Shown here one piece after another: positions 3,782 through 54,375 of a stretch of 64,000 nt of DNA. Position 1 is the stretch's first letter, and each line of letters begins with the position of its first letter. The position numbers and the translations under genes were made by a program. The stretch is from Candidatus Coatesbacteria bacterium (lineage in GTDB: Bacteria; JAFGND01). The notes under the pieces are model-generated. The model was given only the letters and a program-made list of their open reading frames with translations, did not search any database and was not told where the DNA came from. The stretch spans positions 1 through 64,000 of the forward strand of contig JAFGND010000023.1 in the NCBI GenBank assembly GCA_016927185.1, written 5' to 3'.

Positions 3782-5770
3782 TTACAAAATTATCTTCCCG
3801 TCATAATCATTTGGAACTGGGATATTGAAAATGTTCAATACTGTTGGTGCAATATCAATGAGAGAAGGATTGGCATCAATAAGCTTCCTGTTGCTAAGGA
3901 ATACTCCTGGAACCCTGTTGTAATCTATACAGTGATCACCAGACCATTTACCTTTGTTAGGTCTTATAATCCATTCAGTTATTTTACCCAGAGCGCTTTG
4001 CCATGCAATTCTGTAATCCCTCTCAAATCCGAGAATTATATCCGGAGATTCATTCATGAATTCACCTTTGAAAATCTCAGTGGCTTTATAAATATTTGCA
4101 AAAACATTTTTGTTAGTTGCAGGATCCTTCAATGCAAGCAATTTTTCCTTGATTTCTTCTAATAATCCTTTTTCCTCATTAGGCGTCACTATTCCCTGTG
4201 CTTCCCTGTTCCTTTTATTAAGATAAAGTCCATTCAAGCCATATGCATATGCTCTTGTCTGTGGCCAGTCAACATCAATAAAAGCTTCATTATCACTTGA
4301 CTTCAAGCCATCGCTGAAATAAAGGTATTTGTTTTCATGAAGCCAGGAGTTGACATTTACTGAATACTTGAAAGAAGCAAAACCATGATCGCTGCAAATG
4401 ATTATTATATCATCTTTATCAAGTTCTGACAGAATTTTTCCAAGCATAACATCAAATGATAAATAAAGATCCCTGATAGCATTTTTTATTTCAAGACATT
4501 CCTTGATATTATAAGCAGGATGATGTTCATCAAGTGCTCTCCATAATACATGAGTATTCTGGTCTAAACTGGAGAAATAGAAGAATAGCAAACCATCCTT
4601 GAAAGACTTGAATTCATGCTCGAAATGAGTAATACTCTCATCAAGTATATAGAGAGCTTGTTGCAGATATTCCCTGTCAGTAAGTGCTCCTGAAGTCAAT
4701 GATTTAGTATTTTCTGGCATTCCCTGCGTGTAAAACAATCCCATATCTTTAGAAAGATTTGCAGCATATCCAGAAGGTGCATCTATCGGAAGAGCCGGAT
4801 CATTGGGGTTTATATTCACTGGTGTAACATAAAGTTGGAAATCCGGATATAATGATTTCAGATAGAATCTGACAATCCCTGATATTTTCTTCATAGAACC
4901 TGCAAAAGGAAAATCTATCTCAATCCATCTTGACCATTCCTTTTCCTTTAGAAGAATCTCTTCTTTTCCAAAACGAAGCAACAATAACGACTTTTCTTTA
5001 TCCAGAAATGCCGTTCCATTTGAATATGTTGTTATTTTCTTATTCTTGAATGGATTTTCAGGTCCAGGTATTGATAAATTTACTTTGTTATTTGTTACTG
5101 CTACAGGTATTATCTGACCGCCTCCAGCTTCTTCATCCTGTATGAATTCAACATTTGTGAAAAGTGTGAACAAGCCATAAGTCCCTTGTAAATCCGGAGT
5201 ACCCATACCGCTTATGCTTTTGCCAAATCTTGTTTCTTTTGGAGGAAAGTTAGAAGGGATTTTATAAATAGTATGAGCAATTTTATGTGCATCAAGATAA
5301 TCCCAGAAAACATCACTCCTGTTCAGATTTTCGACCTTGCCTGCTGACAAGGGGATTTTCCATGAGGATAAATTCAGATTAATATCTCCACTTATACTTT
5401 TCGAAGTACTCAGGAAAGGTGTATAGAAATTGGGATCTCGGTGTATGAAATCGAAAATTCCATGTTTGGCAGGATTCTTCCCTGAAGCAAATGAAGCCCA
5501 TGCAACAGGAGATTGGGGAGGCATTACAGTACGCAGAGGGGAAAATGAACCTGTTTTTGATAACGTATAAAAATTTTTCATTAATCCTTCATTGAACATT
5601 TTTTTAAGAAAACCTGGATCCATACCATCTATTCCAAGTATTAAAATCCTTCTTCCTGTTCTTATGCTTCTGCTTTGAAGCCTGCAACCAATCATTCCAG
5701 TAGAAAGCAGACCACAAGCAGATAGCTTCAAAAAATCTCTTCTATTAATCTCGAATCTTTTTCTTGTCAT
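3782..5770 (-). CDS. TAT-secreted alkaline-phosphatase-superfamily enzyme (type I phosphodiesterase/nucleotide pyrophosphatase-like) with C-terminal extension
   Basis: 662 aa; twin-arginine motif RRDFLKLSACGLL; GIDGMDPGF metal site, Ser/Thr nucleophile region PPQSPVAWASF...HGIFDF, SDHGF motif; paralogous to ORFs at 38212-39480 and 40083-41492. Confidence 0.75.
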   Translation of the reverse strand: MTRKRFEINRRDFLKLSACGLLSTGMIGCRLQSRSIRTGRRILILGIDGMDPGFLKKMFNEGLMKNFYTLSKTGSFSPLRTVMPPQSPVAWASFASGKNPAKHGIFDFIHRDPNFYTPFLSTSKSISGDINLNLSSWKIPLSAGKVENLNRSDVFWDYLDAHKIAHTIYKIPSNFPPKETRFGKSISGMGTPDLQGTYGLFTLFTNVEFIQDEEAGGGQIIPVAVTNNKVNLSIPGPENPFKNKKITTYSNGTAFLDKEKSLLLLRFGKEEILLKEKEWSRWIEIDFPFAGSMKKISGIVRFYLKSLYPDFQLYVTPVNINPNDPALPIDAPSGYAANLSKDMGLFYTQGMPENTKSLTSGALTDREYLQQALYILDESITHFEHEFKSFKDGLLFFYFSSLDQNTHVLWRALDEHHPAYNIKECLEIKNAIRDLYLSFDVMLGKILSELDKDDIIIICSDHGFASFKYSVNVNSWLHENKYLYFSDGLKSSDNEAFIDVDWPQTRAYAYGLNGLYLNKRNREAQGIVTPNEEKGLLEEIKEKLLALKDPATNKNVFANIYKATEIFKGEFMNESPDIILGFERDYRIAWQSALGKITEWIIRPNKGKWSGDHCIDYNRVPGVFLSNRKLIDANPSLIDIAPTVLNIFNIPVPNDYDGKIIL

Positions 5771-48327: not shown

Positions 48328-49941
48328 TCATTGGAGTCTGTAACCGCTAGTATAAGTCTGATCATCTTTTCTATGGATGAAGATACCATCTGATAAATCA
48401 TCAGTTAGGAAGATATTCCAAATCGCTCCATCTGCGGGTAAATTTTCTGACTCCATTATATTCATGTGCTCTCCATTATAAAAATACATATTTCTATTTG
48501 TTGTTCCAAGGAAATATAATTCTGGAGAAATCACTCTAGATGAAGTAAGAAATAGTTTTTGGTAAACATATGAAGGAACTGAATATTTACTCCACACTCC
48601 ATTGATGTATACTGCTGCAATCCCATCTTTGGATACTGCAATTCCATAGGTTCCACTAGAATTAAATGAAAGTCCATTCACTTCATAATCCAAATTGTAG
48701 CTCTTGGTTCCGTCATTATGACAAACAACAACACCATTACCTGTTGATGATGAAACTCCAAATAACCATACTAATCCATTGTTTAAGACTATTTTTTTCA
48801 ATCTATTATACTTGTAATCAGTTTTAGTAACGTCACTCCATTGATTAGTCATATTATTAAAAGAAAGGAGTCTTATTCCTACTTTACCAGAATCATAGGC
48901 AATTGCAAAGGTTCCAGGAGAACCAGATTGAATTTCATCTATTACCTTGTATGGATTTAATTGATCCCTGTAAATAGCAACTACTTGGTTATGATTTGTA
49001 TAATAACAGATTCTATCCCATAATCCAGCCCATCCAGAATTGTCATTTATTGGACAGATACTGAAAAGCATATCTTCCATAGTAATTTCCTGATGAGATA
49101 AAGTATATGAAGTTAATGCTCCATAACTATACTGAGTATATGAAGGAGGTTTTGAATCATGACCAACACATATAACATTTTCATTGAGGATTTCAACATC
49201 TGTGCATCTCCTACTAGAAGGCCAACCTGAAATCTCTGTCCAATCCTTTGATAAAGTGGTTACAGAAATTGAAGAACCTACTGGAGTATACTGACCTGAA
49301 ATGCTAAAATATAATCTATAATAAGCTTTTTGGTTTATTAATGCTGAATTATCAGTTATTTCCTGGTTAGTAGTTTCTCCTATAAAAGTGCCATTTGAAG
49401 GGTTCACATCACTTTTTGTACTTCTAAAGACTGCAAATCTTTTATATTTTGGACTTGTAAAATCCCAGCTTAATTTTACTTTATTTTTGGCTAAAAGTGT
49501 TGCAGTTATCATATTTGTACCTTGTGATAACCTAAAGTATCTTCTATCACTAGCGCCTAATCCATTTATATCCTTAGCTATTATAAAAATGTTGTAATAG
49601 TTATCTTTCCAGAATTTTGTTGAATCTGAAACATCCAGTTTGTAATAGTATTGATTATCTGATCCTTCCATTTTAGTCATAAAACCCAGGAATTCAGATT
49701 CTTCAAAACTCTCTTTACCAGGAGGCGTGATCCAGATTTCAATAGAATCCTTTTTAATTCTATACATTCCCTCTACCTTAGCAGAGATCTCAACAATGTT
49801 ATCAACAGGATATACCCATGTACCATTTGCTTCTGGATAAGTAATCCAGCAAACTGGATTGACGGGTTCAGTTAGATTTGTACAGCTGAACAATGCAATG
49901 AGCAGCAGTATTAGTGTTAAGAATATTATCTTTCTTATCAT
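48328..49941 (-). CDS. Secreted lipoprotein, hypothetical
   Basis: 537 aa; lipobox ALFSC. Confidence 0.5.
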   Translation of the reverse strand: MIRKIIFLTLILLLIALFSCTNLTEPVNPVCWITYPEANGTWVYPVDNIVEISAKVEGMYRIKKDSIEIWITPPGKESFEESEFLGFMTKMEGSDNQYYYKLDVSDSTKFWKDNYYNIFIIAKDINGLGASDRRYFRLSQGTNMITATLLAKNKVKLSWDFTSPKYKRFAVFRSTKSDVNPSNGTFIGETTNQEITDNSALINQKAYYRLYFSISGQYTPVGSSISVTTLSKDWTEISGWPSSRRCTDVEILNENVICVGHDSKPPSYTQYSYGALTSYTLSHQEITMEDMLFSICPINDNSGWAGLWDRICYYTNHNQVVAIYRDQLNPYKVIDEIQSGSPGTFAIAYDSGKVGIRLLSFNNMTNQWSDVTKTDYKYNRLKKIVLNNGLVWLFGVSSSTGNGVVVCHNDGTKSYNLDYEVNGLSFNSSGTYGIAVSKDGIAAVYINGVWSKYSVPSYVYQKLFLTSSRVISPELYFLGTTNRNMYFYNGEHMNIMESENLPADGAIWNIFLTDDLSDGIFIHRKDDQTYTSGYRLQ

Positions 49942-50226: not shown

Positions 50227-50646
50227 ATGATTAATTGGGATGTAATACCTAAAGAATCTCAAGAGGAAACTGTTGATAGATGCTATTATAGCCTGATAGA
50301 TTCTTCAAGAATCTATAGAAACAGAATACTTGAATTGAAACAAGAATTTCTTCAAAAAATGTTGGTTACAATCCAGGATCATGGTTTATGGCAATGGCTA
50401 ATTGGAGAAGAGAGATGTACTGAATTATGCAAGAGCTTTGACGGAAAAATTGTCTTTTCCTTGAAACTGGAAGAAGCAGGTTTCATAATAAGCATTGAAG
50501 CAAAAAGTGAAACTGATACTATATACTATGAAATATCCAAATCTGGAATAGTAGATAGAGGATTAATACCTTATATAGATGAAATCTCACAAGGCTTGCT
50601 TGAAGTATATATGAAGGCAAAAAAAGAAAGAACCAGAAACCTATAA
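50227..50646 (+). CDS. Hypothetical protein convergent with E2-like gene
   Basis: 139 aa ORF with good SD (AAGGAGA) upstream; no recognisable domain. Confidence 0.45.
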   Translation: MINWDVIPKESQEETVDRCYYSLIDSSRIYRNRILELKQEFLQKMLVTIQDHGLWQWLIGEERCTELCKSFDGKIVFSLKLEEAGFIISIEAKSETDTIYYEISKSGIVDRGLIPYIDEISQGLLEVYMKAKKERTRNL

Positions 50647-51297
50647 AAAAGTGACTTTAGGTTTTATTTTTTCTGTAATATCTGGAATACCTGTCGGCAA
50701 TACCTTGTAAAAACTGATCCATCTTGTCAACATATATTCAAAGACTTTTTGAGGATTCAAATCCTGATACCATTTCATGATTTCAATATTCAATCCCCAA
50801 TCTGAATCTTTGTACAAACTTGGTGGTTTTACCAAATCAGGTTTCAGAAGCACATTGAAAATAATGTCTCCTATTATCCTGTCTATCTCTCCATTTACAA
50901 TATAGCAAACCGGCATTTCCCTGTTAGAAGAACACCTGGGATGGAGTAATGGAGTTTTACAATAGATTTTTACTTTATCAAGTCTATATGGATAATATCT
51001 TGGTATCTTGAATACAAAAATATGATTGAAGCCAATTATTGCTTTGCCATTCCTTTTATTCACAATTCCAGGAATTCTATTTAAAACGATTTCAAATCCT
51101 TTATATGTTTTATCTTTTCTTTTTCCAATTGATCTTATTGTAATGTCCTCTTGAATCCAGCTGTCTTCGATCCTTTTATGTTTTGAAATCGAGATTTCGT
51201 AAGATAAAGCAAATCCAGAAAATTCCTTATAGAAATTTTCTATTCCTATTTCTATTCTCCTGTTGAATATCAAAGGTGGAAGGTTCAGGTCTTGCAT
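50641..51297 (-). CDS. Ubiquitin-conjugating (E2/UBC-fold)-like enzyme
   Basis: 218 aa; FKIPRYYPYRLDKVKIYCKTPLLHPRCSSNREMPVCYIVNG aligns to UBC core (F.P..YPF.PPKV.F.T.I.HPN....G.ICL); HP + Cys active-site arrangement. Confidence 0.7.
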   Translation of the reverse strand: MQDLNLPPLIFNRRIEIGIENFYKEFSGFALSYEISISKHKRIEDSWIQEDITIRSIGKRKDKTYKGFEIVLNRIPGIVNKRNGKAIIGFNHIFVFKIPRYYPYRLDKVKIYCKTPLLHPRCSSNREMPVCYIVNGEIDRIIGDIIFNVLLKPDLVKPPSLYKDSDWGLNIEIMKWYQDLNPQKVFEYMLTRWISFYKVLPTGIPDITEKIKPKVTFL

Positions 51298-51605
51298 GTT
51301 CCTACTGTTGGTCTTACATCGAATTTGAAAACCTCGCCATTTTCCAGATCTGGTGTTAACTCACCTAATGTTAATCCAGGACTAATTTCTGAGTGTCCGG
51401 TACCTTTTCTTATTAAAATGAAGTTATGCTGCGAACCCACTTTTTTTTGAGCCCACTTATCTAAATTCAGATCAGGTTCTTTTTCGCATCTTGCAACAAT
51501 AGCTTCAAGAATTTCCTCAATTGTAGTTGTTAAATCTACTCCTATTCTAAAGCTCTTATTCTTCGGTTCAACCTCTACCTCAATTGTCCTCCAAAAGGTA
51601 CTCAT
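51285..51605 (-). CDS. Beta-grasp ubiquitin-like protein with C-terminal extension after Gly
   Basis: 106 aa from ATG with perfect SD (AAGGAGG); TIEVEVEP...TIEEILEAIVARC...LTLGELTPDLENGEVFKFDVRPTVG pattern mirrors ubiquitin strand1/helix/strand5; ends ...TVG-TCKT. ORF-track TTG start (MKKKRRKR) rejected. Confidence 0.6.
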   Translation of the reverse strand: MSTFWRTIEVEVEPKNKSFRIGVDLTTTIEEILEAIVARCEKEPDLNLDKWAQKKVGSQHNFILIRKGTGHSEISPGLTLGELTPDLENGEVFKFDVRPTVGTCKT

Positions 51606-51709
51606 CCTCTTCCTCCTTTTTTTCTTCAAGGCTGTTCATGTGAATTTCACAAATAAAGTAAGGTAACCAGTTTGGTGGTTTTTCATTTTTATATGGGAAA
51701 GAAATTTCA

Positions 51710-52507
51710 TCAATGATCTTTATTTTTGACATCTAAATCCTCTATACAAAAAGGTTCAACGCAATTGGGATTTTTTATTATATCTGTTTTAAACAACAGT
51801 CTTTTTTCCAGATTAAAATGCAAGTGAAAATTTCTCTTCTCATTTTCCTCAAAACTGTTTAGCCATTCTGTAACCATCAAACTTGCAGCAATGCTGTTCA
51901 ATGTAATTATAATAGGGAAGGACGGAGAAACGCTTTTAATTAAATCATTGCATTTCGATTTTACTTTCTCAGCAAGAATTTCGTTTTTATATTTTTCTGT
52001 AAAAGAACAACTCATGCATGAATTCTTAAGATTCTTGTAGACTCTTATATCTACTATATTTTTCCCCATTGCTCCATCTATTATAATGGGATGACTCTTC
52101 ATGGAAAGCAAAATTATATTGATCATATACCTAGAGTAATCATTATCAATGCACAAAAAAATACAATCAGAATTCCAATACTTCTTGTTAATGTTTTCTG
52201 CATAAGAAACCAGAGAATCAATTTTTGTTTTCCAAGCTTGCTCTCCGATTACCTTTTTTATGATTTGTGTTTTGAAAGTTCCTTTTCTTATTCCTGGATT
52301 GAAGAATATGCATCTGTTTCTGTTATGTTCTTCTATTTTGTCAAAATCAACTATTGTTATTCCTTTTATTCCTAGTAAAATAAGATTTTTGATAACTTCA
52401 TTTCCAATAGATCCAGCACCAATTACAAGTATCTTTTTTTCGATAATCTCCTTATATCGCTTTTTTCCAATATATTGAGCGTTTTTACTATGTTGAATAT
52501 AAGACAT
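51710..52507 (-). CDS. E1-like ubiquitin-activating enzyme (ThiF/MoeB/HesA family)
   Basis: 265 aa; ILVIGAGSIGNEV nucleotide-binding loop and VDFDKIEEHNRNR adenylation motif; Cys-rich SCMSCS segment. Confidence 0.8.
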   Translation of the reverse strand: MSYIQHSKNAQYIGKKRYKEIIEKKILVIGAGSIGNEVIKNLILLGIKGITIVDFDKIEEHNRNRCIFFNPGIRKGTFKTQIIKKVIGEQAWKTKIDSLVSYAENINKKYWNSDCIFLCIDNDYSRYMINIILLSMKSHPIIIDGAMGKNIVDIRVYKNLKNSCMSCSFTEKYKNEILAEKVKSKCNDLIKSVSPSFPIIITLNSIAASLMVTEWLNSFEENEKRNFHLHFNLEKRLLFKTDIIKNPNCVEPFCIEDLDVKNKDH

Positions 52508-52994
52508 ATTTAATTGGTGCTAGGAATAAACCTCCATCTATAGCTCCTCTTATCTGGAATACTTTGAAGTATTTTGATATTGGATCTGCTATTATGAAGA
52601 CATTACCAGGAGTTCCATATGGAAACAGCAAAAATGTTGATAGATCTTTTAAGGAAAAAAACGGTTCTGTTCCAAAAGGATGAGAATGAAAAAGTCCAAT
52701 TTCTCTCGGTGGATTTATACTGTCAGGATAACGTTCTGATAACATCAGAGAACAATCTCTTAGCCCCTTGTTTGTAAATGAAGCACTTGATCTTGTTTTT
52801 TCGAATTCACCGGTAACCCAATCAGTAATTTTTATATAAATAGCTCCTTCAAATAGACATCTATAGCCGATAAGTTTTGCCAATGCCTCGTTAGGTAATT
52901 CCTCTTCAGAGAATCTCATCAAGTCCCTTGCAATTCTTTTCAGAATATAAACTGAATATATAACTTTTTTCTGCATAATCAATATAGTCAGCAA
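52488..52994 (-). CDS. JAB/MPN (JAMM) metallopeptidase
   Basis: 168 aa; JAMM motif HSHPFGTEPFFSLKD (HxHx7-8SxxD) with upstream Glu. Confidence 0.75.
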   Translation of the reverse strand: MLTILIMQKKVIYSVYILKRIARDLMRFSEEELPNEALAKLIGYRCLFEGAIYIKITDWVTGEFEKTRSSASFTNKGLRDCSLMLSERYPDSINPPREIGLFHSHPFGTEPFFSLKDLSTFLLFPYGTPGNVFIIADPISKYFKVFQIRGAIDGGLFLAPIKYVLYST

Positions 52995-53078
52995 AGATCC
53001 AAATCCACAAAATAAAGCAAGAAGTTTATTTTTGATAAAATGCTTGCATGAATAATATAAAATATTCGCTTTGCCAAC

Positions 53079-53378
53079 ATGATAATTGTAAAAATAATGG
53101 GTCCAGTGGTTTCTACATTGAAAACAGATTCTCTGAAGGGTTTTAAGCTTCTTCTAGTTCAAAGACTTGATATTGAATTGAAAGGTGAAAAACAAGCTCT
53201 CGTAGCTGTTGACTTGGTTGATGCCGGGCCTGGGGATATTGCTTTATTTGTTAGCGGTAGCAGTGCAAGGCAGACTACCGAAACACAAAACAAGCCAGTT
53301 GATGGTTTATTAGTTGGCATTGTGGAGCAAATAGAGAAAGAACATAAAGTGATCTATAAAAGAGGAGAAAATGAATAA
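53079..53378 (+). CDS. EutN/CcmL/PduN-family bacterial microcompartment vertex protein (orphan)
   Basis: 99 aa; MIIVKIMGPVVSTLKTDSLKGFKLLLV...VAVDLVDAGPGDIALFVSGSSAR...PVDGLLVGIV is near-textbook EutN/CcmL signature; no shell hexamer genes nearby. Confidence 0.8.
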   Translation: MIIVKIMGPVVSTLKTDSLKGFKLLLVQRLDIELKGEKQALVAVDLVDAGPGDIALFVSGSSARQTTETQNKPVDGLLVGIVEQIEKEHKVIYKRGENE

Positions 53379-54375
53379 AAATGATCCTAAGGACATATTA
53401 GGACTTTTTTTTACTATCTCCCAGCAACTTGAATATGCAACGAGTGAGAAGTTTTTTTATGATATAAACCCAGATGAATTTGATTCAATATTGTTCGTGG
53501 GAATGGGTGGCTCAGGAGTTGCAGCGAGAATCATAGCTGAGCTTTTTAACAATAAGTTTAAAACTCCATGGTCTTTCAGTAATGATTATCTTGTCCCTGA
53601 ATGGATAAGTGAAAAAAGCTTAGTTGTTTCAATAAGCCAATCTGGAAATACCGAAGAAGTATATTTTTCAACTGAAGATGCATATAGAAAGAATGCAAAG
53701 ATAATAATTATTACAAGCGGAGGTAATCTTGAGATTCTTGCCAGAAAACTTAATTGCCCAATCATAAAAATTCCACCGGTAATTGCCCCGAGAGGAGCTT
53801 TCGGAAATCTATTTGGTACTTTACTTAATTTTTTAAAACAAATGAAAGTGATTGATGTTGAAACCAAGGAAATAGAAGAGACAATAGCTTTGCTTGAGGA
53901 ATTGAAAAGTGAGTGGACTAAGGATGATAGCTTGCCATGGAGAATAGCAAGATATCTTGAAAAATCTTATCCAATGATATATGGTGAAGAGAATTATATG
54001 AACAGCATTTGTTTCAGATGGGTAACACAATTAAATGAAAATGCCGGGATTCTAGCTCATTTCGCAATGCAGCCGGAGATGTCACATAATGAAATAGTAG
54101 GATGGAGAGACAAGAGTATGCCTGCAAAGATATTGTTTCTTTGCGGTAATCAGGTTCATCCGAGAATAGCATTAAGAAGAGAGATAATGAAGAAAATAAT
54201 TCCCTTCGAATATAAAATGATTTTTCCACCATCAGGATTATTGAAATGGCAGGAAGCCTTTTATTTTCTGCATTTAGGAGATATAGTAAGTGTATATCTT
54301 GCTTATATTAATAATAAAGATCCTTTTGATATAAATGAGATTAGTTGTTTGAAAATGGAAATGGGAAAGAAATAG
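53371..54375 (+). CDS. Bifunctional phosphoglucose/phosphomannose isomerase (SIS domain)
   Basis: 334 aa; FVGMGGSG...SQSGNTEE SIS motifs, size typical of archaeal-type PGI/PMI. Confidence 0.75.
   Translation: MNKNDPKDILGLFFTISQQLEYATSEKFFYDINPDEFDSILFVGMGGSGVAARIIAELFNNKFKTPWSFSNDYLVPEWISEKSLVVSISQSGNTEEVYFSTEDAYRKNAKIIIITSGGNLEILARKLNCPIIKIPPVIAPRGAFGNLFGTLLNFLKQMKVIDVETKEIEETIALLEELKSEWTKDDSLPWRIARYLEKSYPMIYGEENYMNSICFRWVTQLNENAGILAHFAMQPEMSHNEIVGWRDKSMPAKILFLCGNQVHPRIALRREIMKKIIPFEYKMIFPPSGLLKWQEAFYFLHLGDIVSVYLAYINNKDPFDINEISCLKMEMGKK

Follow-up and report, generated by a model that had tools for sequence, protein, structure and literature searches.

What is encoded by a compact cluster of minus-strand genes in the genome of a Candidatus Coatesbacteria bacterium, and does it serve in defense? 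We analyzed the window, a 64,000-nucleotide stretch of DNA in which an original prediction had recognized a complete operon for a JAB peptidase, an E1, a ubiquitin-like protein (Ubl) and an E2. The fold and motif assignments of all components bear out a complete E1-E2-Ubl-JAB conjugation cassette. However, its proposed classification as a 6E/Bil-type antiviral system did not hold, and we think it probable that the locus is a self-contained Ubl-conjugation cassette of a distinct, uncharacterized family, with the gene order JAB-E1-s50-Ubl-E2.

All four predicted reading frames were found on the minus strand where they had been placed, as were the motifs quoted for them (HSHPFGTEPFFSLKD in the JAB, GAGSIGNEV...DFDKIEEHNRNR in the E1 and HPR...C in the E2). 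The cluster comprises five genes rather than four, since a small gene, s50, lies between those for the E1 and the Ubl (Table 1). Neighboring genes overlap by 20, 23, 26 and 13 nt and a terminator scan found no terminator-like site inside the cluster, which is consistent with a single transcription unit. Judging from position, the promoter presumably sits in the divergent intergenic region; a promoter scan of the cassette showed no enrichment over shuffled sequences. The reading frame given for the JAB was confirmed, but not its start, which is most likely the ATG at 52976, because the residues upstream of the gene caller's Met are conserved in a second, related genome (L001) and in the archaeal orthologue.

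Table 1. Features of the cassette and of the adjoining intergenic region, in window positions; the start of the JAB gene is the most likely one.
Feature	Position	Strand	Length	Open reading frame	Basis or remark
JAMM/JAB metallopeptidase (MQKKVIYSVYILKR...)	52488..52976	-	162 aa	52488-52994	Pfam Prok-JAB and zinc motif
Compact single-domain E1 (ThiF/MoeB/Uba-type adenylating enzyme)	51710..52507	-	265 aa	51710-52507	Pfam ThiF
s50 (MSKIKIIDEISFPYKNEKPPNWLPYFICEIHMNSL and acidic tail)	51580..51732	-	50 aa		Overlaps E1 end and Ubl start
pro-Ubl, ubiquitin-like β-grasp with extra helix	51285..51605	-	106 aa	51285-51629/51605	AF2 model, Foldseek
UBC-fold E2	50641..51297	-	218 aa	50641-51297	UBC fold, HPR...C motif
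Intergenic region	52977..53078	.	102 bp		Between cassette and divergent EutN/CcmL-PGI-peptidase-Fmt genes

Pfam profiles recovered the expected enzyme folds to differing degrees: ThiF clearly (1.2e-26, 93.8 bits; cut-off 28.1), Prok-JAB just at its threshold (1.7e-5, 25.1 bits; cut-off 25) and UQ_con not at all for the cassette E2. The ThiF match is a lone domain spanning residues 9-249 of the E1, with GxGxxG, the NxNR arginine finger, DND and a four-cysteine zinc site (C164/C167 and C249/C254); no UFD or second adenylation domain was found. Among five orthologues, D54, N62, N64, R65, K79, D121, C164, C167, C186, C249 and C254 are invariant. The Gly-rich ATP loop, arginine finger, Mg-binding Asp, zinc tetracysteine and crossover-loop Cys of an adenylating enzyme are all present. 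By its conservation and its position in the crossover region, C186 is the candidate thioester cysteine. The closest solved relatives of the E1 are the active adenylation domains of the eukaryotic UBA6, UBA1, SAE2 and UBA3 (3e-12 to 2e-9), followed by MccB, Uba4, Cap2 and BubCD (1e-5 to 4e-4).

The JAB carries a Glu (NEALAKL) and the zinc motif HSHPx8SxxD (E(NEAL)...HSHPFGTEPFFSLKD), which together form the Glu ... H-x-H-x(7-8)-S-x-x-D site of JAMM/JAB peptidases. Neither L001 nor the Heimdall/Gerd orthologue departs from this motif, and the latter matches PADLOC JAB models at 2.5e-8. We propose that the JAB both processes the pro-Ubl and acts as a deconjugase. Single-sequence searches of the PDB returned only chance matches for the JAB and for the E2.

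The structure model of the Ubl, built from a 5-sequence alignment, has an AF2 pLDDT of 81, with residues 102-106 disordered. Foldseek placed Ub, ISG15, SUMO1 and NEDD8 at the top of its matches (target-normalized TM 0.75-0.84), confirming the β-grasp that had been predicted. At the sequence level, only weak YukD matches were obtained, a PDB search at E<=10 yielded chance matches and no ubiquitin, and hhalign against ubiquitin gave 6%. The protein ends in an invariant V101-G102 followed by the four-residue tail TCKT. Its C-terminus is defined by orthologues that stop at VG, aligned with Gly102 (L002/P0044, L005, L007 and L013), and by others in which the Ubl is fused to the E2 as VVG(G/A/S/M)-LP... 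(L003, L010, L011 and L015); VVGG occurs in some relatives only. TCKT is presumably removed by the JAB, and the Ubl accordingly has both the fold of a β-grasp modifier and a C-terminal Gly that the predicted processing would expose, as had been anticipated. Its gene is preceded by AAGGAGG, 8 nt ahead of the ATG.

The E2 comprises a long N-terminal helix and an enlarged β-sheet, and three helices at the C-terminal side lead into a flexible tail whose last residues are KPKVTFL; the Foldseek TM-scores of the protein are modest (0.35-0.5) owing to the enlarged sheet and the long helix. The core reads YPY..KVKIYCKTPLLHPR(119-121)...C131YIVNGEIDRI, which puts C131, the candidate catalytic cysteine, at the distance of ~8-12 residues past the HPx motif that marks the UBC fold. 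HPR stands in place of the canonical HPN, with the Arg at position 121 nearly invariant, and the catalytic geometry may therefore differ. UQ_con matches 11 of 36 relatives, and these only weakly (best 6e-4). Across orthologues, Cys131 of the E2, Cys186 of the E1 and the JAMM motif are invariant or nearly so.

The fifth gene, s50, is equipped with a GAGGA Shine-Dalgarno sequence and an ATG of its own, and in other loci its counterpart is a separate gene after that of the E2. For both reasons, we rejected a programmed frameshift joining E1 and s50. Compared with L001, s50 is 92% identical; 9 of its codon changes are synonymous and 4 non-synonymous, and none falls at a second position. It matches the gene after E2 in an archaeal locus (phmmer, 6e-7), and most related loci have a homologue of it beside the E2 gene. 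An HMM built from seven loci matched, among 1499 ORFs of nine independent loci, only the small ORF adjoining E2. The comparison marks s50 as specific to loci of this cassette family; no Pfam family covers it. The family motif is [phi-x-phi-phi-D/E] ... E(K/R)PP(P)N ... F-x-C-x-(I/L)-H. By pattern, s50 and the C-terminal tail of the E2 share a short basic-phi-x-phi-phi-acidic strand motif resembling a SUMO-interacting motif (SIM). Among E2 tails this motif is enriched (19 of 29, 6.2 expected), the cassette's own tail (VTFL) being a loose match. We propose that s50 may be an adaptor or regulator that binds the Ubl or the E2.

How widespread is this arrangement? The family was recovered only by an exhaustive HMMER search, which found 40 cluster representatives of the E2 in a set of 1.84 billion proteins, spread over Planctomycetota, Coatesbacteria and, among the Asgard archaea, Heimdall/Gerdarchaeota; word-indexed searches returned 2 proteins for the E2, 2 for the Ubl and 4 for the E2 alignment. 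Searching related loci with an 11-sequence alignment, we found the order JAB-E1-Ubl-E2(-s50) in ~25 independent loci. The departure from the Bil order that had been noted earlier is thus the normal state in this family. Pfam, NCBIfam and PADLOC miss three of the five family proteins, and a pattern-limited scan of viral contigs found no relative of the cassette. Most relatives carry upstream a Smc6-like ATPase, a zinc-finger protein and two unknown proteins, and compared with this mobile cluster of Planctomycetota and Heimdall/Gerdarchaeota the Coatesbacteria cassette is reduced. The zinc-finger protein adjoins the JAB and has eight conserved ligands. Neither it nor a 209-aa protein of the relatives matched Pfam or PADLOC, and profile searches of the PDB gave no significant match for either, nor any solved RING for the former; that the 209-aa protein is kite-like and the zinc-finger protein RING-like is for this reason a conjecture. 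The likeliest place for an earlier account of related Planctomycetes operons and of 'YukD-like' conjugated Ubls is Burroughs et al. (2011), and the exact family may already have been described. A literature search for Coatesbacteria together with ubiquitin found no paper.

These components allow the biochemical mechanism to be inferred with good support. The JAB would strip TCKT from the 106-aa pro-Ubl and expose Gly102, which would be adenylated with ATP by the single-domain E1, itself presumably homodimeric in the manner of MoeB, ThiF and UbaA. Cys186 of the E1 would then hold the Ubl as a thioester and hand it to Cys131 of the E2. The E2 would place it on lysines of target proteins, the window containing no E3 or target candidate, and the JAB could also undo the modification. 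The SIM-like motifs of s50 and of the E2 tail may dock the Ubl non-covalently and so tune or direct conjugation.

What this chemistry serves is a separate matter, and the genomic setting bears on it. The cassette occupies the equivalent position in L001, likewise a Coatesbacteria genome, between EutN/PGI and a 139-aa gene, and every one of its genes is under strong purifying selection relative to that genome, third-position codon changes predominating. The convergent 139-aa gene, found only in L001, was rejected as a further member. The GC content equals that of the flanks, the base composition is unremarkable and the flanking genes are core genes (Fmt, EngA/Der, LolA, ATP sulfurylase, Wzy-like). 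The original prediction had rightly seen no mobile-element marker nearby, and there are no toxin genes among the neighbors either; the small defense islet that it had proposed is left unsupported by this setting. Taken together with the putative promoter region shared with core genes, and with the fact that SAMP-like systems need no E3, this would suit an endogenous regulatory or proteostasis modifier of the host, comparable to archaeal SAMP/UbaA or ubiquitin. SAMP/UbaA and Urm1/Uba4 likewise pair a single-domain MoeB-like E1 with a β-grasp modifier ending in Gly, and the NCBIfam SAMP E1 model matches the cassette E1 at 9.6e-10. Yet those systems lack an E2, whereas here no partner of the Ubl is better conserved than the E2. 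Moreover, the family is very rare and patchy across unrelated phyla, a pattern typical of accessory modules that move horizontally, and its relatives carry variable add-ons (SMC-like ATPase, kinase, transglutaminase, zinc-finger protein). On balance we consider an endogenous role unlikely, though worth serious consideration.

A Bil-type (6E/6C) system conjugating its Ubl to phage structural proteins is improbable. BilABCD (type I '6E', type II 'CEHH/6C') does have the same four kinds of component, namely Ubl, E2, JAB DUB and E1, with a precursor Ubl trimmed by the JAB (predicted here) and no dedicated E3. The family is sporadic across phyla, and the SMC-like ATPase that precedes the cassette in relatives has the Lamassu LmuB model as its best PADLOC match (1.8e-20), which hints at a defense context. 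The E1 also weakly matches, at its core, the PADLOC Cap2 'E1-E2' models of CBASS (1.7e-15) and, through the shared ThiF core, BilD (8.3e-6, profile positions 207-338 of 453). No cassette protein matches PADLOC BilA, BilB or BilC, however. The order bilA(Ubl)-bilB(E2)-bilC(JAB)-bilD(E1) is invariant in surveyed Bil operons, unlike JAB-E1-s50-Ubl-E2, and s50 is an extra conserved protein. BilD has ~450 aa, with tandem inactive and active adenylation domains (IAD-AAD) and a mobile CYS domain, against the single domain of the cassette E1. BilB is a CEHH-like E2 without the C-terminal helices of canonical E2s; the cassette E2 model keeps these helices, its profile is not alignable with BilB (0.2% by hhalign) and it lies nearer to canonical eukaryotic E2s than to BilB or BubB. 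Type II CBASS (Cap2/Cap3) and Bub (BubABC) share E1/E2-type chemistry and a deconjugating peptidase (predicted here), but type II CBASS has an E1-E2 fusion next to a CD-NTase and an effector, while the cassette encodes E1 and E2 separately and no CD-NTase or effector families were found among its neighbors.

Membership in the 'eukaryote-like' ubiquitin operons of Caldiarchaeum and Asgard archaea (Ub, E1, E2, small RING E3, Rpn11) is very improbable, even if several observations point that way. Such Ub-E1-E2-srfp-Rpn11 operons are likewise compact, with a pro-Ubl processed by a JAB (predicted here) and eukaryote-like E1 and E2, and are found in Asgard archaea and, sporadically, also in bacteria. 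An orthologous cluster exists in Heimdall/Gerdarchaeota, eukaryotic enzymes are nearest to the E1 and E2, related operons of Planctomycetes have had earlier mention, the relatives' zinc-finger protein adjoins the JAB, and the Ubl, a precursor like C. subterraneum ubiquitin, ends in TVG where the latter has TVGG. The modifier of those operons, however, is ubiquitin by sequence with a Gly-Gly end, whereas the sequence of the cassette Ubl shows no detectable resemblance to ubiquitin and ends in VG. Their JAB is Rpn11-like and ours Prok-JAB-like; the solved C. subterraneum Rpn11 structure (PMC6043591) was absent from its matches in the PDB sequence search. The E2 stays below the UQ_con threshold and has HPR rather than HPN, and the E1 lacks the inactive Rossmann domain, Cys domain and C-terminal UBL that accompany the active domain in the archaeal E1. 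Finally, the 64-kb window contains no zinc-finger or RING-like ORF that could correspond to srfp, and the relatives' zinc-finger protein resembles no solved RING. Compared with eukaryotic Ub/SUMO cascades themselves, the best structural and sequence matches of E1, E2 and Ubl are eukaryotic, the E2 has UBC topology including the C-terminal helices, and the phi-x-phi-phi-acidic motifs recall SIMs (pattern-based), but the cassette has a minimal E1 and an enlarged-sheet E2, with no E3, proteasome link or UFD.

A sulfur-carrier or biosynthetic system of the ThiS/MoaD type (E1, β-grasp carrier and JAB, as in CysO-Mec+) is hardly credible: ThiF and MoeB models are the best NCBIfam matches of the E1, all far under their cut-offs, and JAB-processed carriers reportedly exist in such pathways (Iyer and colleagues are said to have noted them in 2006), but ThiS/MoaD carriers and their E1 work without an E2 and are linked to sulfurtransferase or biosynthetic genes, whereas here a UBC-fold E2 with its catalytic Cys is the obligate partner in every locus, the top 50 listed fold matches of the Ubl are all ubiquitin-like domains with no ThiS/MoaD chain among them, and the E1 lacks a rhodanese domain just as the cluster lacks biosynthetic genes.

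For a cassette of a distinct family, we lean toward an accessory module that derives from conflict or DNA surveillance and has become fixed in the present Coatesbacteria lineage; a Bil-like modifier of phage tails seems to us the lesser candidate. In practical terms, the annotation is corrected to five genes that are not Bil, with any defense role putative. As a class, operons of the E1-E2-Ubl-JAB kind are familiar from prokaryotes, but, to our knowledge, only the Bil, Bub, CBASS Cap2/3 and Caldiarchaeum systems have been studied. The E1 and E2 of this family are more like canonical eukaryotic enzymes than are any characterized bacterial ones, and s50 is a small, conserved partner of a new kind whose features are SIM-like. 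With five small proteins, a single-domain E1 and no E3, the cascade is minimal and lends itself readily to reconstitution.

More tentatively, and with considerable doubt, the cassette could be a pared-down version of a mobile supermodule found in Heimdall/Gerdarchaeota and Planctomycetota, one that hard-wires the Ubl, E1, E2, JAB and SIM-like small protein to a Smc5/6-like ATPase with two putative partner subunits and to a RING-like zinc-finger protein. The coupling of Smc5/6 to ubiquitin/SUMO ligases is now held to be a eukaryotic innovation (bioRxiv 10.1101/2024.01.07.573240). If the supermodule exists, it would be a prokaryotic SUMO/ubiquitin-type system working by SIM-like docking, and would parallel in prokaryotes, perhaps even as its evolutionary antecedent, the coupling through Nse1 and Nse2. 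The genetic fusion of the relatives' cassette to a Smc6-like complex could bear on how SMC complexes gained ubiquitin/SUMO ligase activity, and also on SMC-based surveillance of foreign DNA.

The cassette spans 50641-52976 on the minus strand and comprises five overlapping genes, encoding a JAB peptidase, an E1, a 50-aa protein (s50), the ubiquitin-like protein (Ubl) and an E2. Neighbouring genes overlap by 20, 23, 26 and 13 nt, in order, and a terminator scan found no terminator-like site inside the cluster. The original prediction had listed four genes, all of which are present, but s50 had been overlooked. It had also extended the cluster to an upstream TTG at 52994. The JAB gene likely starts instead at the ATG at 52976, giving a product of 162 aa, since codons 5' of the Met chosen by the gene caller change almost only synonymously between the window and L001, a related Logan contig, and the same stretch aligns with the N-terminus of the archaeal orthologue (VYxVYILxR).

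The 4.4-kb contig L001 (~83% nucleotide identity) carries the identical gene set at the identical place, lying in both cases between EutN/CcmL-PGI and a convergent 139-aa gene. Third codon positions take most of the substitutions in every cassette gene, and s50, with an ATG and a Shine-Dalgarno sequence of its own, shows no second-position change between the two. The E2 protein is identical to that of NCBI locus tag JXA60_02510, from a Candidatus Coatesbacteria MAG.

Features of the cassette, its surroundings and related loci; codon counts compare the window with L001, and the zinc-finger proteins are those of alignment A9
Feature	Locus	Coordinates	Strand	Synonymous-only codons	Non-synonymous codons
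JAB peptidase, transcribed first (probable start)	window	52488-52976	-	48	7
E1, second	window	51710-52507	-	54	54
s50, 50 aa, third	window	51580-51732	-	9	4
Putative pro-Ubl, fourth	window	51285-51605	-	28	5
E2, fifth	window	50641-51297	-	64	52
139-aa gene	window	50227-50646	+		
537-aa protein	window	48328-49941	-		
EutN/CcmL-type protein	window	53079-53378			
SIS/PGI-like gene	window	53371-54375			
Nine-gene cluster (SMC-like/268-aa/209-aa/zinc-finger/JAB/E1/Ubl/E2/s50-like)	L007/L008	1021-9070			
Nine-gene cluster	L023	181-7449			
Nine-gene cluster	L025, L027, L030, L031, L034, L037, L038, L040, L043, L045, L047				
Frame break at ten-A run	L011	8983-9058			
Frame break at ten-A run	L017	6992-7058			
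Frame break at ten-A run	L018	681-699			
Frame break at ten-A run	L019	2251-2326			
Frame break at ten-A run	L020	6959-7025			
Frame break at ten-A run	L021	6977-7052			
Frame break at ten-A run	L022	5352-5460			
Frame break at ten-A run	L026, L029				
Zinc-finger protein, eight conserved ligands	L007	5464-5946			
Zinc-finger protein	L003	2313-2921			
Zinc-finger protein	L014	5755-6471			
Zinc-finger protein	L015	about 4500-4680			
Transglutaminase-core protein	L012	9825-11012			
Transglutaminase-core protein	L014	6567-7958			
Ser/Thr protein kinase	L015	1367-3331			
Divergent E2 paralogue	L009	5011-5682			
Divergent E2 paralogue	L004	1333-2001			
SIS+CBS (KpsF/GutQ-like) gene	L013	6781-7863			

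The window E2 matched nothing in Pfam, PADLOC or NCBIfam, and HMMER, run exhaustively over 1.84 billion representatives, returned only 40 relatives. Their alignment yields the pattern IPRxYPxxLxxIxIxxxTxLxHPR...ACxxVNGEIDRIL, in which a nearly invariant HPR stands where canonical E2s have HPN. UQ_con matched 11 of 36 family members, weakly, and the family profile found 71 matches in the PDB, all of them eukaryotic E2s, with their active-site cysteine aligned to Cys131; hhalign against human UBE2D2 gave 78% (E 1.7e-5). An AlphaFold2 model built with the family alignment (pLDDT 92) predicts a UBC topology that includes the C-terminal helices and has additional strands and an elongated first helix, and Foldseek matched it to eukaryotic E2s with probability 1.0 and TM-scores of just 0.35-0.5.

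The E1 matches Pfam ThiF at 1.2e-26. By sequence, the solved structures nearest to it are active adenylation domains from eukaryotic UBA6, UBA1, SAE2 and UBA3 (3e-12 to 2e-9), behind which MccB, Uba4, Cap2 and BubCD rank. The ATP loop, NxNR finger, DND motif, four-cysteine zinc site and Cys186 of the crossover region are invariant in five orthologues. The protein terminates directly past the second zinc motif and has no UFD, second adenylation domain or inserted Cys domain. The JAB protein lies barely at the Pfam Prok-JAB threshold (25.1 bits, cut-off 25); its zinc site, Glu...HxH...S..D, is complete and invariant among orthologues, and the archaeal orthologue matches PADLOC JAB models at 2.5e-8.

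At the sequence level, the Ubl family matched only YukD, weakly and in four of seven relatives (best E-value 0.009). YukD-like Ubls conjugated by E1/E2/RING/JAB systems are reportedly mentioned in the abstract of the 2011 study by Burroughs and colleagues; the systems meant there could be the present family. The AlphaFold2 model, from a five-row alignment (pLDDT 81), has a beta-beta-alpha-(alpha)-beta-beta-beta beta-grasp topology, for which Foldseek placed ubiquitin, ISG15, SUMO1 and NEDD8 on top (TM-scores normalised to the target 0.75-0.84). Val101-Gly102 is invariant among orthologues, which either end exactly at Val-Gly or fuse to E2 as VVG(G/A/S/M)-LP.... The window Ubl runs on past Gly102 with TCKT, disordered in the model. 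Together, the orthologous ends and this extension mark it as a predicted precursor whose mature end would be Gly102.

The C-termini of the E2 family form flexible tails with one to three basic phi-x-phi-phi(-acidic) motifs, often at the extreme C-terminus (KVKILE, VVILED, GIRII); the window tail (50641-50700) reads KPKVTFL. The basic phi-x-phi-phi motif is enriched: 19 of the 29 tails contain it, where shuffles predict 6.2. In addition, s50 begins with the same kind of motif. This strand pattern fits the consensus of SUMO-interacting motifs, and we hypothesise from the motifs that s50 and the E2 tails dock the Ubl. s50 was tied by phmmer to the gene 3' of E2 in the archaeal locus (6e-7), and on inspection small genes flanking the Ubl/E2 pair elsewhere share a module, [phi-x-phi-phi-D/E] ... 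E(K/R)PP(P)N ... F-x-C-x-(I/L)-H. When an s50 HMM from seven loci was run against 1499 ORFs of nine independent loci, the sole matches were the small ORF beside E2, in five of the nine; in a wider survey, most loci with enough flank had an s50-like gene.

We annotated ~50 loci by six-frame ORFs and iterative searches in a small database, to which the E-values of these local searches are relative. The constant core is the Ubl-E2 pair, and the usual order is JAB-E1-Ubl-E2(-s50), which makes the gene order of the window the canonical one in the E2 family. Among species-representative genomes, those carrying the E2 belong mainly to the Planctomycetota. Four more genes lie 5' of the five in at least 13 loci, encoding an SMC-like ATPase, proteins of 268 and 209 aa and an eight-ligand zinc protein; this nine-gene cluster is conserved and common to Heimdall/Gerdarchaeota and Planctomycetota/Brocadiia, including the Brocadiia bacterium L023. 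Of solved structures, yeast Smc6 is the best match to the SMC-like protein, along its entire length (7e-15), and the top PADLOC model for this protein is Lamassu LmuB (1.8e-20). A preprint on SMC evolution takes the link between Smc5/6 and ubiquitin ligases to be an innovation of eukaryotes (bioRxiv 10.1101/2024.01.07.573240). The zinc-finger protein (C-x2-H ... C-x2-C-x4-C-x2-C ... C ... H) adjoins JAB on its upstream side or sits beside the Ubl-E2 pair; it matched nothing in Pfam, PADLOC or the PDB and is a candidate for an E3-like partner. The reduced form with five genes is that of the window, L001 and L028; across its whole 64 kb the window lacks homologues of the SMC, zinc-finger and transglutaminase proteins.

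A Ubl-E2 fusion has its reading frame broken in at least seven Planctomycetota loci, at one shared position, by a -1 frame change in a conserved run of ten A. Reading the run as nine A gives a Ubl-E2 protein collinear with unbroken homologues. The shared position and the restored collinearity suggest programmed ribosomal frameshifting or transcriptional slippage, which would control the amount of full-length E2.

Other gene associations were seen in single loci or pairs. Transglutaminase-core proteins lie directly 3' of E2/s50 genes in L012 and L014, which have no adjacent E1 or JAB; one of the two has an Asgard-like context (Arf/Roc GTPases, TackOD1). In L015, E1 and the Ubl-E2 fusion gene are separated by an inserted Ser/Thr protein kinase gene whose product bears a zinc ribbon at its N-terminus, and L024 has a similar 2-kb insert. 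Divergent E2 paralogues in L009 and L004 have the YP...HPR region interrupted by an insertion and no adjacent Ubl, E1 or JAB; that of L004 is surrounded by many small genes without a Pfam match, which may represent a mobile element or virus. A SIS+CBS gene lies directly 5' of E1 on the same strand in L013, and the SIS/PGI-like gene of the window is found ~400 bp away from the cassette, on the opposite strand; only two loci show this, and it is probably coincidence.

The original assignment to the 6E/Bil type does not hold: the cassette departs from Bil in gene order and in the architecture of its E1, and it fails each of the three profile tests. Membership in CBASS and Bub fails as well. Nearest in spirit is the Caldiarchaeum/Asgard eukaryote-like operon, but its ubiquitin, Rpn11, multidomain E1 and RING have no counterpart match in the cassette. 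Related operons in Actinobacteria, Planctomycetes and Acidobacteria are mentioned in a review passage citing Burroughs et al. 2011.

Folds and conserved residues, read by homology to established E1/E2 chemistry, lead us to propose the following cycle. JAB would cut TCKT off pro-Ubl, after which E1, probably as a homodimer, would adenylate Gly102 and form a Ubl thioester on Cys186. The Ubl would then be handed to Cys131 of E2 and transferred to lysines of target proteins, and JAB would also undo the modification. All structural evidence for the cassette proteins comes from predictions, that for the Ubl from a shallow alignment.

Several genes close to the cassette deserve mention. A lone EutN/CcmL-type microcompartment vertex protein (Pfam 3.2e-25; NCBIfam CcmL 2.5e-23, below cut-off) is encoded directly 5' of the PGI-like SIS protein, divergent from the cassette, and no shell-protein genes were noticed among its examined neighbours. 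The 139-aa gene converges on E2, the two stop codons sharing a 6-nt overlap; its conservation in L001 is 92%, no family matches it, and it was not found in other E2-family loci. Between the Wzy-like gene and the cassette region lies the gene of a 537-aa protein; its N-terminus is lipoprotein-like, and Pfam assigns it no family.

The location had been taken to suggest a small defence islet. The window gives this reading no support: the position is syntenic in L001, core genes surround the cassette (Wzy-like, PGI-like, M20 peptidase, Fmt, GT2, EngA, LolA and ATP sulfurylase), GC is ~0.29-0.36 inside and outside alike, and a pattern-limited scan found no relatives in viral contigs. For the family as a whole, extreme rarity, patchy distribution over phyla, variable add-on genes and the SMC/LmuB-like gene next to it in relatives point to an accessory module that moves horizontally. 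As to what the cassette does, we rate a conflict-related role and an endogenous regulatory one as about equally likely.
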